DNA of 34,540 nt from contig CANPGX010000001.1 in NCBI GenBank assembly GCA_947573745.1, forward strand, positions 1 through 34,540, written 5' to 3'. Source of the DNA: an uncultured Erysipelotrichaceae bacterium (GTDB lineage Bacteria > Bacillota_I > Bacilli_A > Erysipelotrichales > Coprobacillaceae). Below the pieces are notes generated by a model that saw nothing but the letters and a program-made list of their open reading frames with translations, did no database searches and was not told where the DNA came from. Of the stretch, positions 405-34,540 are shown one piece after another; the first letter of the stretch is position 1; each line of letters starts with the position of its first letter. The translations under genes and the position numbers were made by a program.

Positions 405-453
405 CCTACGACAAGCATAATGCAATTCTATCTCATTAAATAATGTTGTATAA

Positions 454-2310: not shown

Positions 2311-2313
2311 GCA

Positions 2314-2339: not shown

Positions 2340-2415
2340 AATATATTCACTTTCACAATACCATATTACCATGGTTATCGATACGCGTAAAGTTCTATTT
2401 TCTATCAAAAAAGTA

Positions 2416-2592: not shown

Positions 2593-2595
2593 ATC

Positions 2596-4271: not shown

Positions 4272-4273
4272 TC

Positions 4274-5170: not shown

Positions 5171-5293
5171 TCTTTAATCCTCCTATAATATGATTCTTTC
5201 TTTTATTTTATCATGTCTAAACCATAAAATCTCGCATTACTTTCTCTTTTATATAGATAAAAAAAAGAATATACTGTTAAATGAGGTGATTTT

Positions 5294-9051: not shown

Positions 9052-9052
9052 T

Positions 9053-9532: not shown

Positions 9533-9638
9533 ATTTTCACCCTCTTTGTCGCTATTTTAGCATATATTTTTTTTAATGAATAGACACCCTTACAAAATTT
9601 CATGTATAATGGAAAAACAAAGAAAGGAATGTGATTTT

Positions 9639-11325: not shown

Positions 11326-12063
11326 ATATTTCCATAGACATTTGACTTCAAAATACGTCACTTGGTCTTGTTCATCTGTTCCACGTACAATAAAACAAGT
11401 TTGATCCTTTCCTAAATACAGTTTGACACGGGTCATAGGGGGGATCTCTTTTTTATAAAAAATCGTCACATCCTCGATCATGTGGGTACGCATATCTTCA
11501 AGATCAACGACATCATAGACCCATTCTAAGTAACGTGCATTATTCATATGTTGATTTGTATCTATATCACTGAAATAAACTGTTCTTGTCATCTGATAAG
11601 TCAACAAAAATGGTATCTCAAAATGTTCTGGTTTATCGATAGGCGCATCATCCTCTTCTACCCTTGGAACAGACAAGCCTACTTTTTTAGGCATCACTAT
11701 ACTTCTTTTCTTCAAATCTAATAAAGTCCATATCGACGTACAGACAGCTAAAACTTCCCCACGTTCATCAGTAATTTGATAATATCTAGGAAAAATAACA
11801 GTACTGTTTTTCCCTACCCAAGTTTTGATTTCTACACATTGATTCAACGTTATTGGGTGATAAAAATGAAGACGTTGCTTAGAAACAACCCATCCGTAAT
11901 CACTCAATAAGGTCTCATGCCATAATTTTAATTCTAATGCATGTTGTGTAGCAATACTTGATAGTTCACTTAACAAACCAGATAATCGCCACATACCCTG
12001 CATATCGACATCCGAATAGCTGATTTTTTTCTTTTTCGCATAAGAAATCGTCATAAAACTCAC
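11305..12063 (-). CDS. acyl-ACP thioesterase
   Basis: Double hot-dog pattern: YSDVDMQGMWRLSGLLSELSS... and YFSDIDTNQHMNNARYLEW. Confidence 0.8.
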   Translation of the reverse strand: MSFMTISYAKKKKISYSDVDMQGMWRLSGLLSELSSIATQHALELKLWHETLLSDYGWVVSKQRLHFYHPITLNQCVEIKTWVGKNSTVIFPRYYQITDERGEVLAVCTSIWTLLDLKKRSIVMPKKVGLSVPRVEEDDAPIDKPEHFEIPFLLTYQMTRTVYFSDIDTNQHMNNARYLEWVYDVVDLEDMRTHMIEDVTIFYKKEIPPMTRVKLYLGKDQTCFIVRGTDEQDQVTYFEVKCLWKYLTSKSE

Positions 12064-15706: not shown

Positions 15707-16909
15707 ATGAAAAAAATAATATTAATATGTATACTTCTGCTTTCCTGTTTACCTATGTCTATTCATGCTCAAGAGATGCCTGATTTATACAGTCAACAAG
15801 CTATTGTCATGGAAGTCAATACAAAACGTGTCTTATTTGAAAAAAATGCTTATGAAAAAGGATATCCTGCCTCACTGACAAAAATGTTGACCTTACAAAT
15901 TGCTTTAGAATATGGACATTTAGATGATGAAGTTTTCATTGATCAAGATTCAATTGATTCTTTAGATAAAAATTCTTCTTTTGTACCCTTTTATGCTGGT
16001 GAATCTATTTCCTTAAGTGACCTTCTCTATGGTATGGCTATTGCTTCTGGTAATGAAACATGTAATGTCTTAGGAAAACATCTCTATGGATCCGTAGATA
16101 CCTTAGTTCAGGTAATGAATGAACGTCTCCAAACGATAGGTGCCACTAGTACACATTTTAATAATCCCCATGGTCTGTATCGACAAGAACATTACTCTAC
16201 CGCCTATGATATGGCATTAATCATGAATGAAGGAATCAAAGATGAACGCTTTGTCCATTATCTTTCAACAACAGAACATATTATAGAAAAAACAGATAGT
16301 CATCGCTATCATGATATTAAAACGCACAATGAATTAATCGATCCGCAAAGTCAATATTACTTAGAGGGAATTATATGTTCTAAGAACGGCTTCACTGACC
16401 GTGGTCGTCATACTATGGCTGCTTATTTTGAAGTTCAGGGTATGTCTTTTATCATTGTTACAATGAACTGCCAGAAAAAAATTCACCGATTTGATGATAT
16501 TGTTACACTTTATCATTATATACGCTCGCATTACCAATCTGTTCCTGTTCCTTCTTCTTTTAATGAAACATTGATCTTACCTAAAACGCTCCAATTTGAA
16601 AACCCAGAAAACCCTATTTCTTTCGATACCCCTTCTTGGACCATTTTATCAGACACCCAACAATATCCTATTTCTTCAATAGTGACATTTGATGACGTTC
16701 AATCGCCACTAAAACAAGGCGATACTGTAGGAACAATAACGTTTCAACAAAATGATCAATCTTTGACTATACCTTTAATATTAGAAACCAATATCATTGC
16801 AGTGCCTCAAAAAAAGTTCCCTTACAAGGAAGGATTCCTTGTTGTCATATCTTTATTGAGTATTTTAATCATCTACCATCTACATTCTAAGAAAGGCCGT
16901 GTATCATGA
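15707..16909 (+). CDS. D-alanyl-D-alanine carboxypeptidase (PBP5/6 class), membrane anchored
   Basis: Signal peptide, SxxK (ASLTK), SxN (SGNE), KxG (KNG), and a C-terminal hydrophobic anchor. Confidence 0.85.
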   Translation: MKKIILICILLLSCLPMSIHAQEMPDLYSQQAIVMEVNTKRVLFEKNAYEKGYPASLTKMLTLQIALEYGHLDDEVFIDQDSIDSLDKNSSFVPFYAGESISLSDLLYGMAIASGNETCNVLGKHLYGSVDTLVQVMNERLQTIGATSTHFNNPHGLYRQEHYSTAYDMALIMNEGIKDERFVHYLSTTEHIIEKTDSHRYHDIKTHNELIDPQSQYYLEGIICSKNGFTDRGRHTMAAYFEVQGMSFIIVTMNCQKKIHRFDDIVTLYHYIRSHYQSVPVPSSFNETLILPKTLQFENPENPISFDTPSWTILSDTQQYPISSIVTFDDVQSPLKQGDTVGTITFQQNDQSLTIPLILETNIIAVPQKKFPYKEGFLVVISLLSILIIYHLHSKKGRVS

Positions 16910-18111
16910 AAAAATTTCTTCTCTTACTTCTTACATGTCTTTTAATTTTACCCACTCCTATCCATGCTGAAGATACGACACCTTCATTAAATAGCCAATA
17001 CGCTGTTGTAATGGAAGTGGATACCCATCGGATATTATTTGAAAAAAATGCGTATGAAAAAGCCTATCCTGCCAGCATGACAAAAGTCATGACGATCTTA
17101 CTGGCTTTAGAAAAAGGACATTTAAACGATGTATTAACTGTTGATCAAGAATCTATTGATACATTAGATCCAAACTCTTCTGTCGTTCCTCTTTATGTTG
17201 GGGAAAAATTAACCTTAGATGAAATGCTCTATGGCTGTGCCATTGCTTCTGGTAATGAAACATGTAATGTGATTGGAAAATATATTTCACCTTCATTAGA
17301 TCAATTTATCGACTTAATGAATGAGAAAGCACAATCTATAGGGGCTACCCAAACACACTTTATGAATGCCCATGGATTACATCATTCACAACATTATACA
17401 ACCGCTTATGATATGGCTTTAATGATGGAAGCTGGTATTAAAAATGATGATTTTATACATTATCTATCTGCCACACAATATACCCTTGAGCAAACATCAG
17501 AGCATCAATATCATCACATTGTAGGACATAATGCGCTTTTAGATGCCAAAAGTCCTTATTATCTAGAAGGTATGATCTGCTCCAAAACAGGGCATACAGA
17601 CGAAGCCCAATTTACACAAGTCGGCTATTTTCATATCAACGATCTATCTTTTATTGTGGTTACTATGGATTGCGAAACAACCAAACAACGTTATCAGGAT
17701 TTTAGTACCCTTTATCATTATGTTTTAAATCGTTACCAACATGTCTACATCAATGATTATTTATTGGAGCCACTTTCATTAAAACTACCTGCCTATCTCA
17801 AATATCAGGATCGTCATGATCCTTTCTATATCGAAGAAACGCCAGTGACGATCTTAAAAGATACACAGACCTATCCCATCACCTATGATATTCAATTTGA
17901 TACTATTAAAAAGACATATGATATGAACGAAGTGATAGGATCTATCACATTTTATCAAGACCAACAAAAAATCACATTGCCTATTTTAACTAAAACAAAA
18001 ATTGTTCGGCAAATACCATGGTATGTCAAAATCCCTTTAGCACTTTTAGTTTTCATATGGCTTATAAAAAAGGGGATGTCATATTCCCAATTTTCTAAAC
18101 GTGAAAAATAA
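16906..18111 (+). CDS. D-alanyl-D-alanine carboxypeptidase paralog
   Basis: Collinear with the upstream gene: ASMTK, SGNE, KTG, and a C-terminal anchor. ATGA start/stop overlap. Confidence 0.85.
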   Translation: MKKFLLLLLTCLLILPTPIHAEDTTPSLNSQYAVVMEVDTHRILFEKNAYEKAYPASMTKVMTILLALEKGHLNDVLTVDQESIDTLDPNSSVVPLYVGEKLTLDEMLYGCAIASGNETCNVIGKYISPSLDQFIDLMNEKAQSIGATQTHFMNAHGLHHSQHYTTAYDMALMMEAGIKNDDFIHYLSATQYTLEQTSEHQYHHIVGHNALLDAKSPYYLEGMICSKTGHTDEAQFTQVGYFHINDLSFIVVTMDCETTKQRYQDFSTLYHYVLNRYQHVYINDYLLEPLSLKLPAYLKYQDRHDPFYIEETPVTILKDTQTYPITYDIQFDTIKKTYDMNEVIGSITFYQDQQKITLPILTKTKIVRQIPWYVKIPLALLVFIWLIKKGMSYSQFSKREK

Positions 18112-23102: not shown

Positions 23103-24011
23103 TTATTTTTGGCACTGTTGGATAAAGTCAGAAATGACTTGCATATATTTTTGAGGATCTTTATCATAAGCACAACCATGTTTTGCCCCTTCTACAACAT
23201 ATAATGCTTTTTGAGCAGAGCAAGCTTGATAAAGACGATGTACCATAGAATAAGGTACAAAATCATCTTGATCGCCATGAATAAATAATGTTGGCGTCAA
23301 AGACAAATGTAGGGCTTCTAAAGCATCAACATCCTCAAAAAAGTAATCAGCTTTCAGCTTGGCTATCAAACTGGCTAGTTTGATGATGATTTTAGAAGAT
23401 ATATGATACTGTTGATTCATTTGATAAGAAAATTCTTCCATAGCTGTCGTATAACCACAATCTTCAACAGCAGCAATCACATTTTCTGGCAAATCTTCTC
23501 CTGTTGTTAGCATGATGGTGGTTGCTCCCATGGATACACCATAAAGCACAATATGAGCCTGAGGAGCTTCTTTTAGAATATCTCCCATCCAATACAAGAG
23601 ATCAAAATGATCATGATATCCCATTCCAATATAATCGCCTTCACTTTGTCCATGCCCTCTTAAATCAGGTAGTACAACATGATAGCCTAAATCTTGAAAT
23701 GAATGAGCTATATGGATCATATCTAAAGCACTACTTCCATAACCATGCACACAAATAACATAAGTATCTATAGTCCCTGGAAGACTATAAGCGTGTAAAC
23801 GTTTTTGATCAAAACTCTCTATATAAAGATCTTGATAATCTCTTTGATTCAATGTTTCCAACGCCTGTTTACGTCTTTGAAAATGATCTTTACTTAAAAA
23901 AGAACGATGGTGATGACGATCAATGGTTAAACGATAAAAATAATGTCCGATAGAAAGTAAAGTTGTCACTAAACCACCTGTAGCCAATAAGGCGATATGT
24001 CTCTTTTTCAT
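23103..24011 (-). CDS. alpha/beta hydrolase with an N-terminal membrane anchor
   Basis: HGYGSS oxyanion region, nucleophile elbow GVSMGA, and C-terminal D/H residues. Confidence 0.8.
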   Translation of the reverse strand: MKKRHIALLATGGLVTTLLSIGHYFYRLTIDRHHHRSFLSKDHFQRRKQALETLNQRDYQDLYIESFDQKRLHAYSLPGTIDTYVICVHGYGSSALDMIHIAHSFQDLGYHVVLPDLRGHGQSEGDYIGMGYHDHFDLLYWMGDILKEAPQAHIVLYGVSMGATTIMLTTGEDLPENVIAAVEDCGYTTAMEEFSYQMNQQYHISSKIIIKLASLIAKLKADYFFEDVDALEALHLSLTPTLFIHGDQDDFVPYSMVHRLYQACSAQKALYVVEGAKHGCAYDKDPQKYMQVISDFIQQCQK

Positions 24012-24030
24012 TTTCTCATCCTTTCATCCA

Positions 24031-24582
24031 TTATTTTTCACTAAAATAAGGTATCAATCTTTGGTATTCATCTAATAAAATACAATAGGTCTGATATGTT
24101 TTATCTTCAATCAAGGCTTTTTCTAAAGTTTTATATTCCATCCATACAACATCTGTGACTTCACTTTCTTGAAGTTTCAGTTGCTCTAAAGGTTGGTCCC
24201 ATTCTAATAAATAGACATACTGAATTTCATGATCATGAAATGGTTTACCATGAAACATATAATGATGGTTTGCCTCTTGCCAAAATGCAAATTTCAAAGT
24301 ATACCCAGTAATCCCTAACTCTTCTTCTAATTCACGGTATGCTGCTTGTTCAAATGTTTCTCCCGGATCCAAATGCCCAGCACTACTTGTATCTAAACAA
24401 CCAGGAAAAGAATCCTTATCAGGACTTCTTTTCTGTAATAAAATATCTATCGAACCTTGATGATGCCGATAAATAAAAATATGACTTGCACCATGAAGGT
24501 CTCCATCACGATGCACTTTTTCTCGTGGTTTAATGATACCTGATGGTGTTCCATCTGGATTTAAGATCATAAATGATTCCAT
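24031..24582 (-). CDS. NUDIX hydrolase
   Basis: Nudix box GHLDPGETFEQAAYRELEEELGI. Confidence 0.85.
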   Translation of the reverse strand: MESFMILNPDGTPSGIIKPREKVHRDGDLHGASHIFIYRHHQGSIDILLQKRSPDKDSFPGCLDTSSAGHLDPGETFEQAAYRELEEELGITGYTLKFAFWQEANHHYMFHGKPFHDHEIQYVYLLEWDQPLEQLKLQESEVTDVVWMEYKTLEKALIEDKTYQTYCILLDEYQRLIPYFSEK

Positions 24583-24702
24583 ACAATTACCCTCTTTTCT
24601 TTTATTTTACTTTGAAAGCGTTTATATAGCAAGTATCTTAAAAAGAAATGATTTTGTTTGTAAAAACACAGAAAAAAAGCTATATTTTTCAGTGCTAATT
24701 TA

Positions 24703-24731
24703 TTGAGAAGCCCTAAGAGGCATGCTATAAT
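24703..24731 (+). promoter_or_regulatory. sigma-A-type promoter of the pfl locus
   Basis: TTGAGA - 17 nt - TGcTATAAT (extended -10), about 35 nt upstream of the RBS GGGGGA and the ATG at 24766. Confidence 0.5.
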
Positions 24732-24765
24732 TGTGACGTTAAAAAATTAACAGGGGGAAAAATAA

Positions 24766-26810
24766 ATGACATTTAAAGAATTATGGCATGATCACTGGAA
24801 TGGCTTTATCCCATCTGGTAAGTGGAATAAAGTTGTTGATTTAAGAGATTTTATTCAAGCTAACTTCACACCTTATGATGGTGATGAAAGCTTTTTAGCT
24901 GGTCCAACTGAAGCTACAAAGAAATTATGGGAGCAAGTGATGGATCTAACGAAACAGGAAAGAGAAGCCGGTGGTGTTTTAGATATGGATACAAAAATTG
25001 TATCTACGATTACATCTCATGGCGCTGGCTATCTTAATAAAGATCTAGAAACGATTGTTGGTTTCCAAACGGACAAACCATTTAAACGTTCTTTACAACC
25101 TTTTGGTGGTATTCGTATTGCTGAACAAGCTTGTGAAACCAATGGTTATAAAGTAGATCCTGAAATTTCACGTATTTTTAGAGATTGGCGTAAAACACAC
25201 AATCAAGGTGTATTTGATGTTTATACACCAGAAATCAGAGCTTGTCGTTCAAGCCATATCATTACAGGATTACCTGATGGTTATGGTCGTGGACGTATTA
25301 TTGGTGACTATCGTCGTGTTGCTTTATATGGTGTTGATAAACTGATTGAAGATAAGAAAAATCAATTGGCAACATCTCAAGTACGTATGACTTCTGAAAA
25401 CATTCGTTTACGCGAAGAATTAAGCGAACAAATTCGTGCATTACAAGAATTAAAAGAATTAGGTCACATTTATGGGTATGATATCAGTCAACCTGCAAAA
25501 AATACAAAAGAAGCTATTCAATGGTTATACTTTGGATATTTAGCAGCCGTTAAAGAACAAAACGGAGCAGCTATGTCTTTAGGTAGAACATCAACATTTA
25601 TTGATATCTATGTTGAAAGAGATTTAAAAAATGGCACTTTTACAGAAGAACAAATTCAAGAATTTATCGATCATTTTATCATGAAGTTAAGATTAGTCAA
25701 ATTTGCTAGAACACCTGACTATAACGCTATTTTCGCTGGTGATCCAACTTGGGTAACTGAATCTATTGCTGGTGTGAATATCGATGGTCAACACATGGTA
25801 ACCAAGACTTCTTTCCGTTATTTACATACTTTGGAAAATCTAGGAACTGCTCCTGAACCAAATATGACGGTTTTATGGTCTATTAAGTTACCTGCAGCAT
25901 TCAAGAGATATTGTGCTAAGATGTCTATTCATACTTCTTCTATTCAATATGAAAATGATGATTTAATGAGAGGCACTCATGGTGATGATTACGCTATTGC
26001 ATGTTGTGTATCAAGTATGCGTGTTGGTAAAGAAATGCAATTCTTTGGTGCTCGTGCAAACTTAGCTAAATGTTTATTATACGCTATTAACGGTGGTGTT
26101 GATGAAAAGACTAAGAATTCCGCCCAGTTGAAGGTGACTACCTAGAATATAATGACGTGATTGAAAAGTATAAAGATATGATGCAATGGTTAGCTGGTGT
26201 TTATGTGAATGCTTTAAACATCATTCACTACATGCATGATAAATATGCTTATGAAAGAATTCAAATGGCTTTACATGATCGTGAAGTTAAACGTTATTTT
26301 GCTACTGGTATCGCTGGTTTATCTGTTGTCACTGACTCATTATCTGCTATTAAATATGCTAAAGTTAAAGTTAAACGTGACGAAGATGGCATTGTTGTAG
26401 GATACGACGTAGAGGGTGATTTCCCTAAATATGGTAACGATGATGATCGTGCCGATGAAATTGCTTCATGGTTAGTTGAAACATTTATGGACTTCGTTCG
26501 TTCTCATCATACTTATCGTCATTCAGTACCAACTACTTCTATCTTAACCATCACATCAAATGTTGTTTATGGTAAAGCTACAGGGGATACTCCTGATGGT
26601 AGAAAAGCTGGTGAACCTTTCGCTCCTGGTGCTAATCCAATGCACGGTAGAGATACACACGGTGCTATTGCATCTTTATCTTCAGTTGCAAAATTACCAT
26701 TCAAGGATGCCCAAGATGGTATCTCTAATACATTCTCAATGATTCCAGGCGCTTTAGGAAAAGATATTATTACATCTGGATATCTTGATCTTGATGATTT
26801 AGACAAATAA
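24766..26810 (+). pseudogene. pflB: formate C-acetyltransferase (pyruvate formate-lyase) core, frameshifted near 26110-26116 and lacking the C-terminal glycyl-radical domain
   Basis: Track ORFs 24766..26145 and 26157..26810 are collinear with PflB (active-site AIACCVS; ...[30 protein letters not shown]...). The frame switches between ...GGVDEKTK (frame 1) and [15 protein letters not shown] (frame 0). The ORF ends ...[19 protein letters not shown] instead of continuing into the RVSGY domain. Confidence 0.85.
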
Positions 26811-26812
26811 CC

Positions 26813-27019
26813 ATGGTAAAAGAAAAAGATATCGATCAACTTATTCAAATGCTTGACCAATTTGCTATACAAGGATCAAGCCATATGAATGTTCAGGTCA
26901 ATCAAGATGGTGAATTAAACACTGAGGAAATCAGCATTACACAAGGTATGGACTGTGCCCTTGGGGATACAGCTTGTAAAATTCCTAATCTTCCTATGGA
27001 AGATGATGATGAATATTAA
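26813..27019 (+). CDS. 68-aa ORF, degenerate paralog of the N-terminal part of the PFL glycyl-radical domain (no RVSGY motif)
   Basis: KDIDQLIQMLDQFAIQGSSHMNVQV aligns with [24 protein letters not shown] in the next ORF. The C-terminal half is unrelated and includes CALGDTAC and an acidic tail. The ATG lies 2 nt after the core stop, and no clear RBS is present. Confidence 0.4.
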   Translation: MVKEKDIDQLIQMLDQFAIQGSSHMNVQVNQDGELNTEEISITQGMDCALGDTACKIPNLPMEDDDEY

Positions 27020-27040
27020 TTAAATAAGGAGGTTAAAACT

Positions 27041-27280
27041 ATGGAAAATGAACAAAGAGTAGATAATTTAGTGAATATGCTTGATGCATATGTTCAACAA
27101 GGAGGACATCATCTAAACGTAAATGTTCTTTCAAAAGAAACATTATTAGATGCTCAAAAACATCCTGAAAATTATCCACAATTAACAATTCGTGTTTCTG
27201 GATATGCTGTTAACTTTGTAAAACTTACTAAAGAACAACAGGATGACGTTATTTCACGTACATTCCACGAAAGTATGTAA
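27041..27280 (+). CDS. stand-alone glycyl-radical domain (PFL C-terminus / GrcA-like), 79 aa
   Basis: GGHHLNVNV...[37 protein letters not shown] is the canonical PFL C-terminus with the radical glycine motif RVSGY. Has its own strong RBS (AAGGAGG, 8 nt before the ATG). Confidence 0.85.
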
Positions 27281-27425
27281 CTATCTATAATTTTCATCTT
27301 AGCATGATTAAATTATAGCCAATTTAACAAACAAAAACGGGTATTTTTAGGATTTGTTATTGATACAGTATAGTTTCAACTTAAAAACAACTTACCCCAA
27401 AATTACCCCATAAAAAGTTAGAGAA

Positions 27426-27453
27426 GGAGCTGTCTAAGGATAGCTCTTTTTCT
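27426..27453 (+). terminator. weak candidate terminator downstream of the pfl locus
   Basis: GGAGCT-10 nt loop-AGCTCT followed by TTTTCT. Short stem with one G-U pair. Confidence 0.3.
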
Positions 27454-27615
27454 GTACTCAAAAAGCACCATAGAAGGCGCTTAAGTACTATATGTTTAAA
27501 TGTTAGTGATTGTTAACTTTTTGAGCTCTTATTGCCTTATCCTAGAAGATTTCTAAGTTTAGGCATGTATTTATATCTGTTTCCCATTTCTCGTTTAGAT
27601 AGAAATTACAGACTT

Positions 27616-27960
27616 CTATATATCTAATTGATCTATCTGTTGATTCAAAACTTCTTTGTATCTCTTCATATTGATATTGTATAGTTCACATATCTTGTAA
27701 TCCGCTTCTAAGAACTGATACTTATAACATAACAAAGGATATTCTTTGATGACCTTATCTAGTTCCAACCATGCTAGCAACATGCTTTCATAAGCTTCAT
27801 CTCTCTCCTGGAGCCTATCAACTAGGCTTTTATTTGATGTAGATCTTACTTGATCATAATTTATACTAGCTGTTCCGTGTAACTTACTATTGAGATACTC
27901 AAACTTGTTTTTAGCTTTGCCGTAAGATTCTAGAAATACTATTTTCTCTTTTCTATTCAT
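27616..27960 (-). CDS. hypothetical; possible sigma-70 region-4 / DUF1492- or RinA/ArpU-like phage regulator
   Basis: 114 aa. Based on general shape only: a coiled N-terminal half followed by ...PLLCYKYQFLEADYKICELYNINMKRYKEVL, which resembles an r4-type HTH. Last gene of the element. Confidence 0.3.
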   Translation of the reverse strand: MNRKEKIVFLESYGKAKNKFEYLNSKLHGTASINYDQVRSTSNKSLVDRLQERDEAYESMLLAWLELDKVIKEYPLLCYKYQFLEADYKICELYNINMKRYKEVLNQQIDQLDI

Positions 27961-27968
27961 TGGCCACT

Positions 27969-28217
27969 TTATAAACCTTCGATTCTAAATGAGTTGATGT
28001 AGTCTATTTGTTCTTGATTCAATTCTAGTTCCTTTGCTATTTCTAATATCTCTTCTTGGCTCATTTCATTTATCATCATAATTGACTTAAACTTTTCTTT
28101 TTGATCACGTTGATATCTTCTTTTTATACCACTATTGATTCCACCTTTTCGGCCATTTACTCGTGCTCGTTCTTCACCTTTTCTATAGGGTTTAAGGTTT
28201 TCTAAGGTTGCTCTCAT
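27969..28217 (-). CDS. small basic protein (82 aa), possibly DNA-binding / small-terminase-like N-terminus
   Basis: Start moved to the ATG at 28217 behind AGGAGAG. MRATLENLKPYRKGEERARVNGRKGGINSGIKRR is Lys/Arg/Gly-rich. Functional guess only. Confidence 0.3.
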   Translation of the reverse strand: MRATLENLKPYRKGEERARVNGRKGGINSGIKRRYQRDQKEKFKSIMMINEMSQEEILEIAKELELNQEQIDYINSFRIEGL

Positions 28218-28283
28218 ATCTTCTCTCCTTGCGAGTTTATTCACGCTTCAACATATTAAAAAGGGAAAAAGATAGACTTACGC

Positions 28284-28874
28284 CTATCCTATATACTTTA
28301 AGCCACCATCAAATTTTTCACCAATGAAATCATTCATTCCCATAATACCAAATCTAGTAGAACGGTTCCCCAATCCATTTTCAACATAATCTTCTACTTG
28401 TTCTTTTTCTCTATTAAGATAATCAATAGTTTTCTTAACTCGATCTTCTTCTAAAAAGCGTGGAATCGCAACACCGCTCTTATTGATAGCGCCATTAATG
28501 AGTTTCAAAGCATACATATCTTCGATATAATTGTTATTCACGATCTCATGTAATGCCATTTCATCATAAGCTCCAAGTTCTATACCTTTGATAATATTAC
28601 TTAAGCCAACTTGGTAGCTTGTATCTGACAACCTTCTTTTCATTTCTGCTTTGTTATTTTCTTGTACTGCTGTGATTGCTTGATCTAGAATATCATTCAA
28701 AAGCTTTGCATACTTCTCTTCTACCTTGTGGAAATTACTCTGTAAAAGCTCTTTTTGTTTTTTCTTCCCCTCAATGGTGAGATCTTCATTATCATCTACT
28801 TTTGCAATTTTATTCATGATCTTATTTCGTTCGTTCTCATATTCATTTAATAAACGTAAAAATTTTTCTTTCAT
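28284..28874 (-). CDS. hypothetical protein (196 aa), element accessory gene B
   Basis: Track ORF trimmed to the ATG at 28874 behind AAAGGAG. K/E/N-rich and helical-looking, with no TM segment and no motif recognised. Confidence 0.6.
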   Translation of the reverse strand: MKEKFLRLLNEYENERNKIMNKIAKVDDNEDLTIEGKKKQKELLQSNFHKVEEKYAKLLNDILDQAITAVQENNKAEMKRRLSDTSYQVGLSNIIKGIELGAYDEMALHEIVNNNYIEDMYALKLINGAINKSGVAIPRFLEEDRVKKTIDYLNREKEQVEDYVENGLGNRSTRFGIMGMNDFIGEKFDGGLKYIG

Positions 28875-28896
28875 TCCTCTTATATTCTCCTTTCTC

Positions 28897-29490
28897 TTAT
28901 AAAATAAAATCATGGTTGAAGAAGTTTTCTAATTGAGCTTCAATGGCAAGCAATGGGCTAGCCCCACTAAGATATAAGGCTGTTCCTAAACTAGCTCTAT
29001 CCCAGTTCCAAATGTAATGCTCGGCTCCTTCTTTAGCATTGGTCAATAGATCTTGTACGGCATCAGCTGACAAGATATCAATATTCTTTGCCTTTCCTAC
29101 CTCATGTAATAATCCAATGAGCGCCTTGCATGCAATGTAATTCTTTCTATAGCTCTTAATGTAGACTTCTGCTTCTAGATCACTTGTACTTTCTTTACTT
29201 GCCCTAATAGCTTCTAGTGTTGAGGTAAATGTATTTGGTGCTGGTTCTGTAAGAATGTTGTGCATTTCTTCAAATAATTTATTAAACTCTTCATTGATGA
29301 TTGCTAAAGCAGATTGTCTTTCATTGATAACTGTATTGTTCAGCTGTGCAATTGCCTTATCTAATTTCTCATCTAAAAGGGCTCCTCTATAATTATTTTT
29401 ATACTCTTTTTCCACTTTTTCATAGTTCTCATAAGCTGATGTTAAAACATCATTGTATGTATTCATGACTTTTTTTGTTTGTTCAAACAT
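28897..29490 (-). CDS. hypothetical protein (197 aa), element accessory gene A
   Basis: RBS AAAGGAGA upstream. Helical-looking, with no TM segment and no motif recognised. Confidence 0.6.
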   Translation of the reverse strand: MFEQTKKVMNTYNDVLTSAYENYEKVEKEYKNNYRGALLDEKLDKAIAQLNNTVINERQSALAIINEEFNKLFEEMHNILTEPAPNTFTSTLEAIRASKESTSDLEAEVYIKSYRKNYIACKALIGLLHEVGKAKNIDILSADAVQDLLTNAKEGAEHYIWNWDRASLGTALYLSGASPLLAIEAQLENFFNHDFIL

Positions 29491-29515
29491 AGTTTTATTA
29501 TTCTCCTTTTGTTAT

Positions 29516-29713
29516 TTAAATGACTTTTACTTGATGAGCTTCTTTACCGCTCTTTCCTTCTACTGACTGAAATTCTACTTCTTGGTTCGCCACTAGCTTT
29601 CTAAATCCTTGCATATCAATGAAACTTTGATGTACGAAGTATTCATGGTCATCTTCTCCCATGATAAAGCCATAACCTTTTTCTGTGATATATCTTCTTA
29701 CTGTTCCTTTCAT
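29516..29713 (-). CDS. cold-shock domain protein (CspA family) carried on the element
   Basis: 65 aa with RNP1-like KGYGFI and an RNP2-like FVH motif. Confidence 0.9.
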   Translation of the reverse strand: MKGTVRRYITEKGYGFIMGEDDHEYFVHQSFIDMQGFRKLVANQEVEFQSVEGKSGKEAHQVKVI

Positions 29714-29899
29714 TGCTTTACTATCCTTTCTTTATATTTCTTGTTTACTTCCCCCACCACCCACACCACTTATAAATGTATCTTCACTTACTTATGCTCC
29801 TTTCTATTGTTCTTGTGAGCTCGTAAGCTCTTGCGATTCAAACATTCTTATCAAAGAGGACTTATTTATCGTATTTGTACATAGTCCTCTGTAATCGTC

Positions 29900-30136
29900 C
29901 TATAAAGCCTTTATTCTATTTACAATTTCATTCTTATAGTTTTCTAAATCATTCCTTAATGCTTTTAGATCATCTATCTTTGATGTTTGTATGCGATTAT
30001 CTAGCAATCCCTCTATCAGTTTATCTATGGATCCGTAATAGGATCTATTGATGTAGCCCGTCTTGGCTTTCTTTTGAAGGATATAAGATAGATCATCTTC
30101 TTTTATCCTGTATTCGTCATTTAACTGTACAATCAT
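29900..30136 (-). CDS. hypothetical protein (78 aa)
   Basis: RBS AGGTGA. The ATG overlaps the upstream stop (ATGA). A hairpin lies just downstream (29855..29890). Confidence 0.5.
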   Translation of the reverse strand: MIVQLNDEYRIKEDDLSYILQKKAKTGYINRSYYGSIDKLIEGLLDNRIQTSKIDDLKALRNDLENYKNEIVNRIKAL

Positions 30137-30387
30137 GACTTATCACCTACTTTATAATCACCGCATGGGGCACCAATAAGGAGTTTAATAGCTGTATCAA
30201 ACCCAGCTACAAATCCCTGTCTTTCATTGATGACACCATATTCATTGATCAGGTCTTTTACTTCCAAAGGGATGGGCGTAGACTTTGTTATCTGTTCCAT
30301 TATCCTCTTTTCCTCTGTGTTCTCTTCTTCTGCTAAGGTCCAATCCCAATACAGATCTTCTATCAATGATTGCTTGATCTTATTCAT
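30133..30387 (-). CDS. hypothetical protein (84 aa)
   Basis: RBS GAGGTGA 6 nt upstream. Overlaps the end of the upstream ORF. Confidence 0.5.
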   Translation of the reverse strand: MNKIKQSLIEDLYWDWTLAEEENTEEKRIMEQITKSTPIPLEVKDLINEYGVINERQGFVAGFDTAIKLLIGAPCGDYKVGDKS

Positions 30388-30838
30388 CTTTCATCACCTC
30401 TTGGTGTTCTTCCCATTCTTTCATTGCCTTTTTATGCTGTTCTACCCACTCTTCTAAGATAGCAAAGGTTCTTGGTAACTCTCCTTTTTCTCTAAAGTAA
30501 GTATGCATATATGAGAAAATACATAAGCTATTCCAATTGTTAAAATCTTTCTCACATTCTCTGCCTCTAGTCATGCCATAATTAAATGCGTAGATCATGG
30601 CCATTGCTTTATTCTCGTGTCGTGAATCTATTTCTTTAAGAACATGCAAGTAATTCCTATTTTCTATTAATGGCATGTCATCTAATTCTTTCATAGTCTG
30701 TTCAATTCTTTTATTCATTTCTATATACCCCTTTTCCTTGAATTGTGGTATAATCTCTTTGGTGTTTGGATTATACCGTTGGCTCTTTATTGTTGGCGCA
30801 ATATTGAGCCTTTTTATTTTGCGAAATCTATTTATCAT
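30380..30838 (-). CDS. hypothetical protein (152 aa; an alternative RBS-preceded start at M41 is possible)
   Basis: Long ORF in the operon frame. The N-terminal 40 aa are very basic. No motif recognised. Confidence 0.5.
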   Translation of the reverse strand: MINRFRKIKRLNIAPTIKSQRYNPNTKEIIPQFKEKGYIEMNKRIEQTMKELDDMPLIENRNYLHVLKEIDSRHENKAMAMIYAFNYGMTRGRECEKDFNNWNSLCIFSYMHTYFREKGELPRTFAILEEWVEQHKKAMKEWEEHQEVMKDE

Positions 30839-30851
30839 GCGTCTTTATTAG

Positions 30852-31076
30852 TTAGTCTTTTAGGCGTATCGTATTTTCTAGACAATCTATAATATCAGTA
30901 ATTCGTTGCAACCATAATAGTCTCATCACCTTTAAGATTGTATCGAAGTCTGCATTTTCACCATGTTGTGCGATAAACTCTTTAGCTTGATCATATGATT
31001 TTGAAAATTCAGCTTGTCTAGATTTTTCTGCTTTTTGTTGCAATATTTCTAACACCATATTTTTATATCCTTTCAT
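30852..31076 (-). CDS. hypothetical protein (74 aa)
   Basis: Track ORF 30852..31121 trimmed to the ATG at 31076 behind GAGGTG. The longer version would start inside an iteron and has no RBS. Confidence 0.45.
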   Translation of the reverse strand: MKGYKNMVLEILQQKAEKSRQAEFSKSYDQAKEFIAQHGENADFDTILKVMRLLWLQRITDIIDCLENTIRLKD

Positions 31077-31105
31077 TTTTAGCACCTCTAGTGAGGGGAT
31101 ATTTT

Positions 31106-31337
31106 TGATAATGTTATCCATTTTTGTTGATTCTATCAGTGTTTTTATAACATTATCATGTTGATAAGGTTATCTATTTTATTTGATAACATTATCAATT
31201 CTTACAAGCACTTAATTTTATTGAATAACTTTATAACATTATCAAGTTGATAAAGTTATATTTATATTGATTTAATCAATATTTTTTAATAACATTATCA
31301 ATTTTTAAGTGTCACTAGAGAAACTTGATAATGCTAT
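31106..31337. repeat. iteron array / probable replication origin of the element
   Basis: ATAACATTATCA occurs perfectly at 31147, 31186, 31233 and 31289. Inverted copies TGATAATGTTAT occur at 31106 (perfect) and, with 1 mismatch, at 31162, 31248 and 31326. An AT-rich palindrome TTGAT-TTA-ATCAA lies around 31267-31279. Confidence 0.75.
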
Positions 31338-33136
31338 TCATTTTCTTCCAATTCTTCTATTTTTTTCAAACAAATAACTGTTTTCCTTTTGGTATCTCCG
31401 TTTGGACTTCCTATTCTCTTTATCTCAATAAGGTTACTTTTACTTAAATCTGCTTTGGCTCGGTTAAAAGTACCTGTGCTTATACTCATAGCTTTAGCCA
31501 ATTCATTTAATTCTGTAGCTTCCATCCCCCCTTCTTGGAGAGAATTTAATATAAAGTTCTTGGCTTCATCAAAAGCTGTACCTTTTTTATCTATTCTTAC
31601 TTTCCCATTTTGATAGTCATAGTCTTTCTTATTGGTAGTTCCCCAGGCTTGAGGCACCCCATCATTTATAGAAAATATCGTTGTCATCTGTTCAATAACA
31701 TAATTGCTTTTTTCATGAGACAAGTAACGCATATTATCATTTCCAGTGAAGCCAACAATAAATACACTTCTTGCAATATCCCATATATCCGAACTATCAG
31801 CAATACGATTGCGGCCATAAGCATTATCTCTCTTGTTTGTATGGGCCATGATAAGCACTGTCACACCATATTTCATGCCATAGCCTATAAGGGGATTCAA
31901 AACATCTCTCATAGCATTTCTATAACCCATATTAACATTGGCTGGTATAAAACTCTGCAATGGATCAAATACCACCAGCGCCGGCCTATGGTAAGCTATA
32001 AGATTCTCTAGAAACTGGCTATTATATTTAATTTCCTTAAAGCGTGGATCCTCTAGTGGAATGGTCATAATGTTTTCCATATTAGCACCATTTCTTTTTA
32101 ATCTCCCTTTAAGTGTTGCCTGTATATCATCTTCACTTGAAAAATACATAACTTTCTGTGGTGGTTTATCTTCTATGAAATCATAAACATCAAAGAAACA
32201 AGAGCCTCCACTACTAATAGCAGCGACAACATTGCACCATACCGTGGTCTTTCCTACTCCACCATTTCCAGCTATTAAAGTGATTTGCCCTTTAGGAATA
32301 AATCCCTGAATAAGCCATTCTGGTTCCTTTTCTTCCACATTAGACATATTTACAACACTTAGATCATTAGTATTTACCCTACTATTGGTTTTACCAATAT
32401 TAGTACCCTTATCATATTTCAAAGCGCTATGTACTATCGTCTTGACCTCATCTTTCGTTAAAGGTGGATTACACTTAGCTTGATTTTCATTCCATACAGC
32501 GCTAAGGATAGCCTTATCTGATAATCCTTTTGCCTGCAACGAACTGGCCAGTTGAAACAGTGTAGCATTTCTACTGCCTTCACCTATTTCCTTTGGAAGT
32601 TCTAAAGGCGGATTGTATACGTCTTCTATCTCTATATCTTTTATACCTTTCAAGAACTCATAAACGGTCTCTGTAGCGTCATTGATATCCTCGCTTAACC
32701 ATTTATACTTCTTACCATTAATCACGCTAGGCGGTGCTAATACGTAGCCATTATCACTTCTTATGTCTATCCCTTCATAAAGATTGATCTTATTCTTAAA
32801 CTCTCCTTTTACCCAATAGTACATATGATAGCCACCACTAGGGGTTTTTACTGTTGCTGTACTTGGAAGACTAGACCCATAAGTATTGAATGATTCTTGA
32901 CCTTCAGCACCGTTCTTAACATCAACATCAACCACTAAAAGGCTATTTCCTGTAGCTATGCCGATATTATACTTTGGGTTTTTATCCCACCACTTTTGGA
33001 TAGTTTCTTTATCCACAGTTGCTTCATTCTTCCATGATCTTAATACTTGCTTGCTTTTAGATCCTTCTTGTAAGGGAAAGACCCTAAGCCCCATATTAGC
33101 GTATCTCAACGCCCACTCTTTTAAATCATCACTCAC
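31334..33136 (-). CDS. bifunctional primase-polymerase (PrimPol) fused to an AAA_25/RepA-like helicase-ATPase and a C-terminal wHTH
   Basis: PrimPol motifs LLVVDVDVKNG and PSGGYHMYYW. PriCT-like GSRNATLFQLASSL. Walker A GNGGVGKTT, Walker B ALVVFDPLQSF. The GTG start overlaps the upstream stop. Confidence 0.85.
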   Translation of the reverse strand: MSDDLKEWALRYANMGLRVFPLQEGSKSKQVLRSWKNEATVDKETIQKWWDKNPKYNIGIATGNSLLVVDVDVKNGAEGQESFNTYGSSLPSTATVKTPSGGYHMYYWVKGEFKNKINLYEGIDIRSDNGYVLAPPSVINGKKYKWLSEDINDATETVYEFLKGIKDIEIEDVYNPPLELPKEIGEGSRNATLFQLASSLQAKGLSDKAILSAVWNENQAKCNPPLTKDEVKTIVHSALKYDKGTNIGKTNSRVNTNDLSVVNMSNVEEKEPEWLIQGFIPKGQITLIAGNGGVGKTTVWCNVVAAISSGGSCFFDVYDFIEDKPPQKVMYFSSEDDIQATLKGRLKRNGANMENIMTIPLEDPRFKEIKYNSQFLENLIAYHRPALVVFDPLQSFIPANVNMGYRNAMRDVLNPLIGYGMKYGVTVLIMAHTNKRDNAYGRNRIADSSDIWDIARSVFIVGFTGNDNMRYLSHEKSNYVIEQMTTIFSINDGVPQAWGTTNKKDYDYQNGKVRIDKKGTAFDEAKNFILNSLQEGGMEATELNELAKAMSISTGTFNRAKADLSKSNLIEIKRIGSPNGDTKRKTVICLKKIEELEENE

Positions 33137-33270
33137 TCTCTCACCTCATCATATTTCAGTATTAAATCACATAAGGCAATAAAAGCTATGATGATCACCC
33201 AATACCACCTAATGCCCCCTAGAATGGCCATAGCTAACACAAACGTGTAGTATATCCATTCTTTCTTCAT
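33133..33270 (-). CDS. small hydrophobic protein (45 aa), not in ORF track
   Basis: Own translation: MKKEWIYYTFVLAMAILGGIRWYWVIIIAFIALCDLILKYDEVRE. Both ends overlap their neighbours (ATGA upstream, GTGA downstream). Confidence 0.4.
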   Translation of the reverse strand: MKKEWIYYTFVLAMAILGGIRWYWVIIIAFIALCDLILKYDEVRE

Positions 33271-33515
33271 TGTCTTACCTCTTTCATTGTTCTTAAGGCT
33301 TCTACTCGATTGCTAATGTCATAGCCTGTCATGTTCCTTTGGAACTTTCTAAACTCCTCTTGAGTAAATACCCAACCTTTACCCGTTTTAATACCTTTTA
33401 GTAGACCTAGCTCTCTCCATTCATAGACATGTTGCACTGATGTTTTCATCAATTCTGCCACGTCTTCATGTGTTAAGGGCACTAGATCTTTTAATGTTTC
33501 TTTGTCGTAGTTCAT
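33267..33515 (-). CDS. excisionase-like / MerR-type HTH_17 DNA-binding protein
   Basis: LTHEDVAELMKTSVQHVYEWRELGLLKGIKTGKGWVFTQEEFRKF fits the phage Xis/HTH_17 pattern. Confidence 0.55.
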   Translation of the reverse strand: MNYDKETLKDLVPLTHEDVAELMKTSVQHVYEWRELGLLKGIKTGKGWVFTQEEFRKFQRNMTGYDISNRVEALRTMKEVRQ

Positions 33516-33536
33516 TTCTTTAGTTTCTCCTTTCTT

Positions 33537-33734
33537 TTAGTCAGTTCTAAATAGTTCATCTATTGTTCCATCAAACTGTAGGAACTCTTTTACCTTTTTA
33601 CATTCTTCTAGTGTGAAGTTTCTTTTTCCCCTTAACTTTTCAGTTATCGCTGTAGTTCCTAAGCCAATAGCAATAGAAAGCTGTTTTCTAGTGATTCCTT
33701 TTAAAGTCAATTCACGCTCTAAAATGTAGTACAT
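33537..33734 (-). CDS. Cro-like XRE-family HTH regulator
   Basis: 65 aa. LKGITRKQLSIAIGLGTTAITEKLRGKRNFT. Divergent from the repressor gene. Confidence 0.8.
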   Translation of the reverse strand: MYYILERELTLKGITRKQLSIAIGLGTTAITEKLRGKRNFTLEECKKVKEFLQFDGTIDELFRTD

Positions 33735-33761
33735 AGTAGTATGGTCATCTCCTTTCCGGTT

Positions 33762-33828
33762 TACGAAATATCGTTAACTTGTTTACTATATTACACGGTA
33801 TAACAAATATTGTCAACGGTATATCGTT
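33762..33828. promoter_or_regulatory. repeated operator-like pseudo-palindromes in the divergent switch region
   Basis: TACGAAATATCGTT (33762..33775) and AACGGTATATCGTT (33815..33828) are 12/14 identical and 53 bp apart. ATATCGTTAA is perfectly repeated (33768, 33821). ACGGTATA is also repeated (33795, 33816). Confidence 0.55.
33788..33816 (-). promoter_or_regulatory. promoter of the Cro-like / replication operon
   Basis: Minus strand: TTGACA - 17 nt - TAATAT. The -35 overlaps one operator copy. Confidence 0.6.
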
Positions 33829-33856
33829 AATTTTTTTGTAAATACGTTTGTTTTTA

Positions 33857-33885
33857 TTGAAAATATATGTAATTTAGTTTATTAT
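33857..33885 (+). promoter_or_regulatory. promoter of the repressor gene
   Basis: TTGAAA - 17 nt - TATTAT, followed by the RBS GAGGTGA and the ATG at 33906. Confidence 0.5.
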
Positions 33886-33905
33886 TGAGATGAGGTGATA
33901 GCATT

Positions 33906-34540
33906 ATGAGAATAGAAAACGAACTAAAAAACCTTATTTTATCAAGATATAAGAGTTTGAGGCAGTTCTCTCTAGATATTGATATGCCCTATTCGACTAT
34001 AGACACTATGCTAAAAAAAGGTATAGGCGGAGCTAGCATTCAAAATATCATTAAAATTTGCCAAGCATTGGCCATTGATACTGACGCTTTGGCAGAAGGA
34101 AGACTTGAAGAGCGTAAAGCAAACGACATTGTTGTGACTTTTAGGGAACAGACTATGCTTAAAAAATATCGCTCTATTGATCAAGAAGGAAGACAAACCG
34201 TCGATACTGTTTTAAATGATATCTATGAACGTTGTAATATCATCAAAGAAGATGAAATTGTTTATGGTTCATTAAATAAATGGATTGATAAGTTACCATC
34301 TTTAGCAAGTGCGGGTATTGGTGACTATCTAGCTGATGGATATGAAACAGAAAAAATAGCAGTGCCTAACGATAGCAAAGCCAACTATGCTATTGGTGTA
34401 AATGGGGATAGTATGCTGCCAACCTATAAAGATGGTGATGTAGTTCTTGTTCAACGAACTAATGATCTCGATTATGGCGATATAGGTATCTTTATTATTG
34501 ATGGTAATTGTTTCATCAAAGAATACCAACAAGATAAGCT
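33906..34540 (+). CDS. CI/LexA-type repressor (XRE HTH + S24 peptidase domain), partial (3' end off window), not in ORF track
   Basis: Own translation: MRIENELKNLILSRYKSLRQFSLDIDMPYSTIDTMLKKGIGGASIQNIIKICQALAIDTDAL...LASAGIGDY...GVNGDSMLPTYKDGDVVLVQ...FIKEY. The GDSM serine motif is typical of S24 autopeptidases. Confidence 0.85.
   Translation, partial: MRIENELKNLILSRYKSLRQFSLDIDMPYSTIDTMLKKGIGGASIQNIIKICQALAIDTDALAEGRLEERKANDIVVTFREQTMLKKYRSIDQEGRQTVDTVLNDIYERCNIIKEDEIVYGSLNKWIDKLPSLASAGIGDYLADGYETEKIAVPNDSKANYAIGVNGDSMLPTYKDGDVVLVQRTNDLDYGDIGIFIIDGNCFIKEYQQDK

Follow-up and report, generated by a model that had tools for sequence, protein, structure and literature searches.

Background

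Phage-inducible chromosomal islands (PICIs) were defined, and the criteria for recognising them set out, by Fillol-Salom et al. 2018 (PMC6092414), with SaPI1, SaPIbov1 and EfCIV583 among the examples. Here we compare with them a small integrated element at the right end of contig CANPGX010000001.1, from an uncultured Erysipelotrichaceae bacterium (assembly GCA_947573745.1), where it adjoins genes for pyruvate formate-lyase (PFL, pfl). The window, by which we mean the whole 34,540-nt stretch of DNA that was analysed, is this entire contig, and exact-sequence look-ups of its proteins revealed that the element continues past the right end. We hold it reasonably probable that the element is an autonomously replicating, integrated member of a PICI-like phage-satellite family in gut Firmicutes of the Erysipelotrichales type. 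As far as can be judged from its sequence, it would behave as a PICI-like element and belongs to a coherent family of small islands, with formal PICI membership incomplete.

The element and the Gram-positive PICIs, among them the pathogenicity islands that Staphylococcus aureus carries (SaPIs), have the same modules: an integrase gene (int), a master repressor, a divergent cro-like gene, xis, a primase-replicase gene (pri-rep), an iteron-bearing origin 3' of the replicase gene, and an accessory operon. Both integrate site-specifically with a short direct repeat, have no recognised structural or lysis genes, and carry accessory genes for which neither deposited phage genomes nor annotated PHROG families offered a homologue. 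They differ in that the element measures about 8.8 kb as against 12-15 kb, in that genes for TerS, Cpm, Ppi and Pti are not recognisable in it, in that its replicase is a PrimPol-PriCT-AAA_25 fusion, and in that its repressor is of the CI/LexA type, combining a helix-turn-helix (HTH) with an S24 domain that has a cleavage site and a catalytic dyad. Classical Stl is not cleaved in the SOS response and is instead lifted by a helper protein (PMC6092414).

A first-pass annotation, made from the sequence alone, had listed the repressor and a Cro-like gene with operators, an HTH_17 gene, a 45-aa peptide, the PrimPol/AAA_25 gene, iterons and nine small open reading frames (ORFs), and had proposed a satellite rather than a prophage arm. 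All of these features are present, each on the strand that had been assigned to it. As grounds for giving up its proposal it had named terminase, portal or capsid genes contiguous with the block, the absence of any integrase or att repeat, and recurrence of the block as the early region of a full ~40-kb prophage in close relatives; we encountered none of these.

Integration site and limits of the element

Contigs with a 79-aa ORF that encodes the C-terminal part of PFL split into two classes, in which the site behind this ORF is either empty or occupied. In the empty class (L012, L013 and L016-L020 in our numbering of contigs and loci) the ORF is followed directly by a terminator and then by an aldo-keto reductase gene; in the occupied class (the window, L014, L015 and L021) the element comes after it. 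The flank of L020 was identical to that of the window at all aligned positions compared, and the reductase fragment of L020 was 100% identical to P0138, a protein carried by L024-L026. These last three contigs have the right junction of the element, where the C-terminus of the integrase is followed by 89 nt, the 18-mer TTCCACGAAAGTATGTAA, and then the terminator and reductase gene as in L020. The identical 18-mer stands at the left junction in the window, L014, L015 and L021 and at the right junction in L024, L025 and L026, and it is found once in the empty site of L020. Since the empty site and both junctions carry the same 18-mer, we define the att core as TTCCACGAAAGTATGTAA. The left end of the element is laid out as follows.

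27263-27280, no strand: attL core TTCCACGAAAGTATGTAA, formed by the last five codons and stop of the 79-aa glycyl-radical gene; repeated at attR, outside the window
27281-27615, no strand: left-end non-coding arm, with a candidate arm-type integrase site and hairpin/T-run, terminator-like sequences
27393-27410, no strand: candidate arm-type integrase site TACCCCAAAATTACCCCA, in the left arm

The first nucleotide of element-only DNA is therefore 27281. Core to core the full element measures about 8.8 kb, when the integrase is assumed to be ~375 aa long as in the relatives, and 7.28 kb of it (27263-34540) lie in the window. This island of about 8.8 kb is real and recently mobile. Occupied and empty alleles coexist within one lineage, and the small glycyl-radical (pfl C-terminal) gene regains its 3' end from the core copy that the element brought. 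In the contigs recovered, a small sample, the insertion site was either empty or held this element; for PICIs, the published criteria describe att sites that prophages never occupy (PMC6092414).

The first-pass annotation had placed the start of the element at 27452, beside pfl. Its position beside pfl stands; the true start, at the att core, lies ~190 nt further left. A direct repeat does flank the element as had been expected, with the difference that its 18 bp lie in the 3' end of the 79-aa gene and not within 27452-27615, and the empty site that had been suggested between pfl and its neighbour exists (for example in L020), the neighbour being the reductase gene.

Two short sibling contigs from other assemblies, L008 (100% identical to the window across the overlap) and L009 (99.94%), complete the repressor at 241 aa. 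Samples ERZ14650989-ERZ14651018 and SRR15730526 contain the element. An integrase had been forecast just to the right of the window, and L009 runs through the repressor stop and, ~220 nt further on the same strand, into the start of a gene for an Arm-binding-type tyrosine integrase; L024 supplies the C-terminus, with HMLRH...DIYTH. Over its first 102 residues the product shares 50-51% identity with the N-terminal ends of the 374-aa tyrosine integrases encoded by the related loci L022 and L001, and the two fragments together (N-terminal 102 aa, C-terminal 81 aa), which leave about 190 aa of the middle between them, span a range of 50-55% identity to those integrases. A homologue search with the N-terminal fragment gave no matches. 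We infer that this integrase, at the right end, performed the insertion. An integrase with a specific att site and flanking direct repeats, one of the features by which PICIs are recognised, is thus in place.

These junctions bear directly on the alternative that the element is a prophage deletion remnant, that is, an early arm left after the loss of late genes. Its immunity region resembles that of a phage: the repressor shares 31-34% identity with CI-like repressors from temperate phages of Streptococcus and Enterococcus in alignments that span 97-99% of its length, and the early region of temperate Firmicutes siphoviruses (Streptococcus Javan-phage, Enterococcus phage) has the same CI-like S24 repressor divergent from cro, with repeated operators. 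A PrimPol 45% identical to that of the element, furthermore, stands beside TerL and portal genes in L035, a contig described below. The element nevertheless differs from such a siphovirus in having no late genes and in att junctions that close at 8.8 kb. Each of the two junctions is intact and the 18-bp repeat is perfect; there is also an empty allele whose flanks are identical, so that the present unit itself is what moved. At its right end the succession of integrase, 89 nt, core and chromosomal terminator leaves no room for late genes, contigs L024-L026 speak against adjoining virion genes on the far side of attR, and neither late genes nor decayed traces of them were found inside the att-bounded unit. 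The accessory genes, too, are intact and common across the family. We therefore regard a deletion remnant as largely refuted and assign it very little probability.

A 14-mer, TACCCCAAAATTAC, occurs 112 nt inside attL (at 27393) and once more within the integrase gene, in its 3' end, 123 nt before the attR core (L024). The same 14-nt motif lies near both ends of L022 and L001, the owners of the closest integrases, and its copies are probably arm-type integrase sites. After excision, the predicted attP junction would read ...CGTTAAAACCG-TTCCACGAAAGTATGTAA-CTATCTATAATTTTC... and the predicted attB scar ...TTCCACGAAAGTATGTAA-TAAAGATGTAGTC.... When we sought the circular (attP) junction on contigs with the gene for the 114-aa protein at the left end of the element, all of them had attL, one with a 150-bp deletion.

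A contig from another sample, L031, has the same element minus 150 bp of the left arm (equivalent to window 27301-27450), a deletion that takes out the candidate arm-type motif and the hairpin/T-run; this copy may have become immobilised, or low coverage may have given rise to an assembly artefact. Scans with Rfam (24000-34540) and for tRNA genes (whole window) gave no matches, and the att site is accordingly not an RNA gene. An aldo-keto reductase locus of Amedibacterium intestinale was considered as the ancestral empty site and was rejected, as it is not syntenic with pfl.

A family of small islands

Six loci have a PrimPol 51-59% identical to that in the window: L001/L002, L003, L004, L007/L069, L022 and L023. 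As far as the contigs reach, they share the order int, HTH repressor, divergent cro, HTH_17, PrimPol, repeats and small genes, and the presence of this order in the element and its six closest relatives is the conserved organisation expected of PICIs. Homologues of the HTH_17 protein and of the 152-, 196-, 197- and 114-aa proteins are held in common by the family. Direct repeats that flank three of the islands, all of them in chromosomal context, were read as att cores.

L022: island of 8,376 bp, bounded by 26-nt repeats of which the left one falls within the 3' end of an acetyltransferase gene
L001: island of 10,934 bp, bounded by 14-nt repeats, with a KAP NTPase gene at its end
L023: island of ~8.9 kb between 18-nt repeats

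No terminase, portal, tail or lysis genes were found in the six closest relatives. Because the islands of the family are small, have the same order and are without late genes, a PICI-like satellite is favoured over a prophage remnant. Against a remnant we also count that the relatives sit at other chromosomal sites, three of them with direct repeats of their own, and keep the same compact size and order. The closest relatives are small islands and not early arms of 40-kb prophages, and in this respect the earlier choice of a satellite over a prophage arm has held.

One relative, L022, encodes a head scaffold protein that matches phrog_172 (1.3e-7) and a major head protein that matches phrog_422 (2.4e-62) at 9787-11047, followed by a Sigma70_r4 protein. 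In IMG/VR, six loci 8.3-17 kb long have homologues of this pair (56-74% identity) next to replicases of the AAA_25 type.

L036, L038-L042: capsid and scaffold loci in IMG/VR, on contigs of up to 20 kb

In a scan of selected large ORFs only, an integrase was identified in L038, L040 and L041 and a sigma factor in L036; no portal or terminase was found among the few large ORFs scanned in L036, L038, L039, L040 and L041. These loci look like Ccm-type capsid-redirecting satellites across gut Firmicutes. A capsid gene without other virion genes is the capsid-redirection arrangement of SaPIbov5 and PmCI172 (PMC6092414), and in L022 and the small IMG/VR contigs, likewise, int, regulator and replicase are accompanied by genes for a major head protein and a scaffold only. 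The window element differs from that arrangement in lacking the capsid and scaffold pair; genes for 197-, 196- and 91-aa proteins sit in the slot that the pair occupies in L022.

Two of the relatives gave observations in their own right. The terminal cargo gene of L001 (15602-16888), just inside attR, encodes a KAP-family P-loop NTPase and is possibly an anti-phage accessory gene; PICIs often carry defence systems in the matching slot. In L007, an IMG/VR provirus, the island lies (1-5800) next to a siphovirus-like prophage, at the end with the tail and lysis genes (DUF859, NlpC/P60-SH3 endolysin), with a single Zn-peptidase gene between prophage and island. L069 has the same island in a 134-kb human-gut contig. 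Since BLAST of the L007 tail (DUF859) and endolysin proteins found no match in L069, the two insertions look independent. Our literature searches on satellites in Erysipelotrichaceae gave nothing relevant.

Control region

The regulatory genes lie at the right end of the window.

33906-34540, plus strand: CI-like repressor with HTH and Peptidase_S24 domains; first 211 of 241 aa in the window
34311-34316, plus strand: repressor Ala136-Gly137, putative cleavage site in the canonical position
34410-34412, plus strand: repressor Ser169, in GDSM, aligned with the UmuD'/LexA catalytic dyad
34518-34520, plus strand: repressor Lys205, aligned with the UmuD'/LexA catalytic dyad
33735-33905, no strand: divergent control region, with three 22-nt operator-like repeats and promoters in both directions
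33757-33778, 33796-33817 and 33810-33831, no strand: operator-like 22-nt repeats, overlapping sigma-70-like promoters
33857-33885, plus strand: rightward promoter TTGAAA-17-TATTAT, a consensus match
33816-33788, minus strand: leftward promoter TTGACA-17-TAATAT, a consensus match
33537-33734, minus strand: Cro-like HTH protein, 65 aa; first gene of the leftward operon, divergent from the repressor gene

The repressor matches Pfam Peptidase_S24 at 5.3e-15, and its HTH has a weak Cro/C1-type match under the Pfam cut-off (HTH_26, 0.015, 16 bits). The Cro-like protein matches HTH_3 just under the cut-off (6.4e-4) and HTH_26 at 0.011. Judged by consensus, the repeats and promoters of 33735-33905 would serve as operators and as divergent promoters. 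The Ala-Gly site and Ser/Lys dyad of the S24 repressor predict SOS self-induction. The first-pass annotation had drawn an SOS link from the S24 domain, and at the level of sequence Ala136-Gly137, Ser169 and Lys205 agree with it.

In five of the six close relatives the repressor consists of an HTH alone and lacks S24 (the contig of the sixth, L004, ends before the repressor), and it thus looks as though the S24 module had been swapped within the family. Literature searches on S24-type repressors in PICIs gave nothing relevant. Ubeda et al. are said to have reported in 2007 that SaPI operon I is under LexA control, so that an SOS link would not be foreign to SaPIs.

Replication module

Downstream of the Cro-like gene, the leftward operon continues with three genes and the putative origin.

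33267-33515, minus strand: HTH_17 protein of Xis/AlpA type, 82 aa; Pfam HTH_17 2e-9
33133-33270, minus strand: peptide of 45 aa with two hydrophobic segments; its gene lies between those for HTH_17 and PrimPol and is translationally coupled
31334-33136, minus strand: replicase, 600 aa, with Pfam Prim-Pol, PriCT_1 and AAA_25 (RecA-fold, helicase-like) domains
31105-31337, no strand: putative replication origin, immediately 3' of the replicase gene, where iterons of either orientation surround an AT-rich core

Every relative keeps the HTH_17 gene, which often makes up the C-terminal half of a product of 143 aa, and the exact 45-aa peptide is called as a gene on 6 contigs. The replicase domains are well matched in Pfam (Prim-Pol 7.1e-35, PriCT_1 2e-12, AAA_25 1.9e-25), and PHROG DNA primase/polymerase families were matched too. 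PrimPol homologues number more than 1,700 at E <1e-20, the nearest named one being in a Coprobacillus metagenome-assembled genome, and an exact look-up of the PrimPol matched no contig. In deposited phages no homologue was found at 80% coverage or above, and the best matches among those listed were 22-34% identical.

Allowing up to 2 mismatches, we found 9 matches to a 13-mer, TTGATAATGTTAT, within the 233 bp of 31105-31337, two of which overlap one palindromic site. Across the entire window the matches number 17 where 5.6 were expected, and 0 of 100 shuffles reached as many. By analogy with SaPI and PICI precedent, this array would act as the origin, and iterons beside the pri-rep gene are a further feature by which PICIs are recognised. 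The relatives also have iteron-like repeats directly 3' of PrimPol; their sequences differ, as is expected for replicase-specific origins.

Replicases of this type are common to small islands and to a true phage or capsid-forming PICI (cf-PICI). In L035, an 18.8-kb IMG/VR contig that also has an integrase, genes for TerL, portal and minor head protein are found 2.3 kb downstream of a PrimPol-AAA_25 replicase (8416-11745; 45% identical to that in the window). PICI pri-rep genes have likewise been reported as shared with phages or cf-PICIs (PMC10085698).

The P4-like satellites share with the element an integrase, an HTH_17/AlpA-type regulator and a primase-helicase replicase, and this triad is common to P4 and the 'Type C PICI' of SatelliteFinder (PMC10085698). 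As differences, P4-like satellites are reported mostly from enterobacteria, and the control region of the element is a divergent CI/Cro switch. Homologues of Psu, Delta, Sid and Ash were absent from our general PHROG and Pfam scans, in which P4-specific profiles were not run.

Accessory operon and the search for virion genes

Nine small minus-strand ORFs, with short gaps or overlaps, fill 27616-31121.

30852-31121, minus strand: 89-aa ORF, no matches
30380-30838, minus strand: 152-aa ORF, homologues in L001, L003, L022 and L023
30133-30387, minus strand: 84-aa ORF, no matches
29900-30136, minus strand: 78-aa ORF, phrog_154, 2.8e-9
29516-29713, minus strand: cold-shock-domain (CSD) protein, 65 aa; Pfam CSD 1e-17, phrog_729
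28897-29490, minus strand: 197-aa helical protein, weak relative in L001
28284-28874, minus strand: 196-aa all-helical protein (ORF open to 28913; 209 aa), of a family found in small islands
27969-28244, minus strand: 91-aa (or 82-aa) basic protein; sole match phrog_2412 (function unknown), 9.7e-6
27616-27960, minus strand: 114-aa protein, last gene of the operon, with homology to L001 and L022 proteins

The four ORFs of 29900-31121 (78, 84, 152 and 89 aa) are coupled. Only the CSD protein, whose gene has the same position in L023 and L070, has a clear assignment; five of the nine have no family match below E = 0.001, and the matches that remain (CSD, phrog_154, phrog_2412 and a sub-threshold HEPN_AbiU2) tell little about role.

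The 114-aa protein has no direct Pfam match. It is 32-35% identical to proteins of L001 and L022 that pass the Pfam Sigma70_r4_2 / Sigma70_r4 thresholds and match PHROG sigma-factor and regulator families. Through these counterparts it appears to be a sigma-70 region-4-like DNA-binding regulator of the phage late-regulator type.

The 209-aa ORF probably starts at M14 (28874), giving 196 aa. Homologues were found in L001 (54% identity), L007, L004, L023 and L069, which among the loci read are small islands only, and the family has 43 cluster representatives among 1.84 billion proteins. It matches no annotated PHROG; one of the 38 members scanned matches phrog_10714, which is undescribed, at 5.2e-4. 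Profile searches of the 196-aa and sigma-like families against the Protein Data Bank (PDB) gave nothing convincing. Given the rarity of the 196-aa family, and the 91- and 114-aa proteins, for which tblastn against 50,697 phage records found no match, the element has the island-exclusive genes by which PICIs are also recognised. For the 197-aa protein a single-sequence AlphaFold2 (AF2) model was unusable (pLDDT 43). We considered it as a defence gene and rejected this; its HEPN_AbiU2 match (8.9e-4) is sub-threshold and no Rx4-6H motif was seen on reading.

Virion and lysis genes had been reported absent downstream of the origin, and the profile searches found no hidden structural genes there. 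Head, tail, packaging and lysis families went unmatched by the nine accessory ORFs and the replicase in Pfam, PHROGs and NCBIfam, and PADLOC, run on the nine accessory ORFs and the repressor, added none; all that NCBIfam and PADLOC yielded was the cold-shock domain. The ORFs for the 45-aa, HTH_17 and Cro proteins were scanned against Pfam only.

Could the operon hide head genes? On one alternative the element is a capsid-forming satellite or miniature phage, with the 197-, 196-, 152- and 91-aa proteins as divergent head, connector or packaging proteins, and the many unmatched accessory ORFs, lying in the scaffold and capsid slot of L022, would leave space for this. The AF2 model of the 196/209-aa protein (pLDDT 65.6), however, is an all-helical bundle, neither an HK97 fold nor a portal, and Foldseek with it found no viral or PDB match, with nothing below E = 0.027 (BFVD) or 0.08 (PDB). 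No ORF has the length of a portal or TerL, the largest accessory ORF being 209 aa. The cf-PICIs overlap with PICIs in their integrase, regulator and primase-replicase modules, and they differ from the element in needing about 11 core genes (PMC10085698), with capsid, protease and portal genes among them as well as those for head-tail adaptor and connector, TerS and TerL; in the element none of these was found. We consider a capsid-forming element highly improbable.

Identity of the element and a proposed life cycle

Several results speak against a PICI-like satellite and keep our confidence in that reading limited. Three of the five SatelliteFinder PICI core components are present (int, regulator and pri-rep), and the authors of SatelliteFinder treat this 3/5 'Type C' class as ambiguous, since it may comprise other mobile elements (PMC10085698). 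The size of ~8.8 kb falls under the 12-15 kb range of PICIs. No ORF matched a TerS family in general profile scans, which did not include SatelliteFinder's own profiles, and no capsid-morphogenesis or Cpm/Ccm/Ppi-type gene is recognisable in this element. No helper phage is known and none lies in the window, where ten larger ORFs scanned at 13.9-24.6 kb included no phage genes. A self-cleaving repressor, if it is one as its sequence suggests, departs from a PICI hallmark and would be equally typical of non-satellite elements. Because L035 has this type of replicase beside TerL and portal genes, the replicase alone is no satellite marker. Finally, the exact attP pattern was unmatched in IMG/VR and the JGI metagenomes, where close copies of the element are absent and the scan is therefore uninformative.

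The main rival is an integrative, self-replicating island that is not a satellite: it would excise and replicate in the SOS response and spread by other routes (mobilisation by conjugative elements, generalised transduction, vesicles or natural transformation), or would be mainly a cargo or defence island. Much of what has just been listed suits it, in that no TerS, capsid-remodelling or interference gene is recognisable in the element, only three of the five PICI core components are there, and this member has no trait that would be diagnostic for the hijacking of capsids. The terminal KAP-family NTPase of L001 is cargo-like. S24 repressors, moreover, also run non-phage elements, as SetR does in integrative and conjugative elements of the SXT family. 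Set against this, none of the family members gave a match to relaxase, oriT-associated or coupling-protein families, and the terminal gene of the operon is sigma-r4-like, of a type placed ahead of phage packaging modules. L022 and many small IMG/VR contigs with related replicases, furthermore, have a major head protein and scaffold as their only virion genes, which is sensible only as capsid hijacking. We judge a non-satellite replicon somewhat unlikely.

If the element is a PICI-like satellite, its cycle might run as follows. At rest, the repressor would close the leftward promoter. DNA damage would activate RecA and lead the repressor to cleave itself at Ala136-Gly137 through its Ser169/Lys205 dyad, whereupon Cro, Xis, the replicase and the accessory operon would be expressed. 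Int and Xis would then excise the circle, the replicase would amplify it from the iterons, and the DNA of the element would be packaged in the capsids of a co-induced, SOS-induced helper prophage, with the sigma-like regulator and the 197-, 196- and 91-aa proteins perhaps filling the place of the scaffold and capsid genes of L022.

A more specific version of this cycle is conceivable, and we offer it as a speculation that is more apt to be wrong than right by a wide measure. In it the element is a minimal satellite of ~8.8 kb whose RecA-cleavable, CI-type repressor times it with an SOS-inducible helper, without sensing of a helper protein, and the 197-/196-/91-aa module hijacks or remodels heads with non-capsid folds and is interchangeable with the scaffold and major-head module of the L022 type.

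A split pfl gene and the chromosomal neighbourhood

The insertion target itself is a split gene. In the window (26157-27280), and also in L012 and L014-L021, pfl is divided as follows.

ends at 26810, plus strand: large PFL ORF, which stops 48 columns into the Gly_radical domain
26813-27019, plus strand: 68-aa ORF, whose first ~35 residues resemble the PFL segment expected next
27041-27280, plus strand: 79-aa ORF with its own AAGGAGG ribosome-binding site, encoding the rest of the Gly_radical domain with the RVSGYAV radical glycine motif

The split recurs in a strain that differs at 8-14% of compared nucleotides. Between the two, synonymous and non-synonymous changes number 21:5 in the 68-aa ORF, 20:0 in the 79-aa ORF and 27:4 in the PFL tail, and this preponderance of synonymous changes indicates that the arrangement is maintained by selection. 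By analogy, it resembles a PFL made of two or three pieces, one of them a subunit akin to a mini-GrcA; the 'spare-part' complementation of truncated PFL by GrcA offers a comparison (PMC8683613).

Separate from this natural split, a one-base frameshift at ~26115-26145 divides pfl into ORFs of 459 and 217 aa. The downstream frame is open from 26115, with the PFL alignment carrying on in it, and the 459-aa product was seen on this contig only. The frameshift could be an assembly error or a strain-specific pseudogene.

Further to the left, two tandem paralogous genes at 15707-18111 encode D-alanyl-D-alanine carboxypeptidases of 400 and 401 aa (Peptidase_S11). The left part of the contig is otherwise ordinary chromosome, with genes for CTP synthase, a SIS-domain (MurQ-like) protein paired with a BadF/BcrAD-type ATPase, a Nudix protein and an alpha/beta hydrolase; there are no tRNA genes in the window.

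Significance for phage satellites of gut Firmicutes

Thousands of satellites have already been predicted computationally, and our results do not overturn current ideas. Most likely we are dealing with a little-studied family in gut Firmicutes, of a general kind (PICI-like) that is already known. To our knowledge, there is almost no experimental phage-satellite biology in gut Erysipelotrichales and Clostridia. If the element is indeed a satellite, it and its relatives extend the PICI-like satellites into these groups. The family offers a compact and fully delimited example, with an 18-bp att core, arm-type motifs, an iteron origin and an operator set. It also displays modular swapping, both between S24 CI-type and HTH-only regulators and between the scaffold and capsid pair and helical proteins of unknown function, and such swaps bear on how satellites choose their induction signals and how they hijack capsids.

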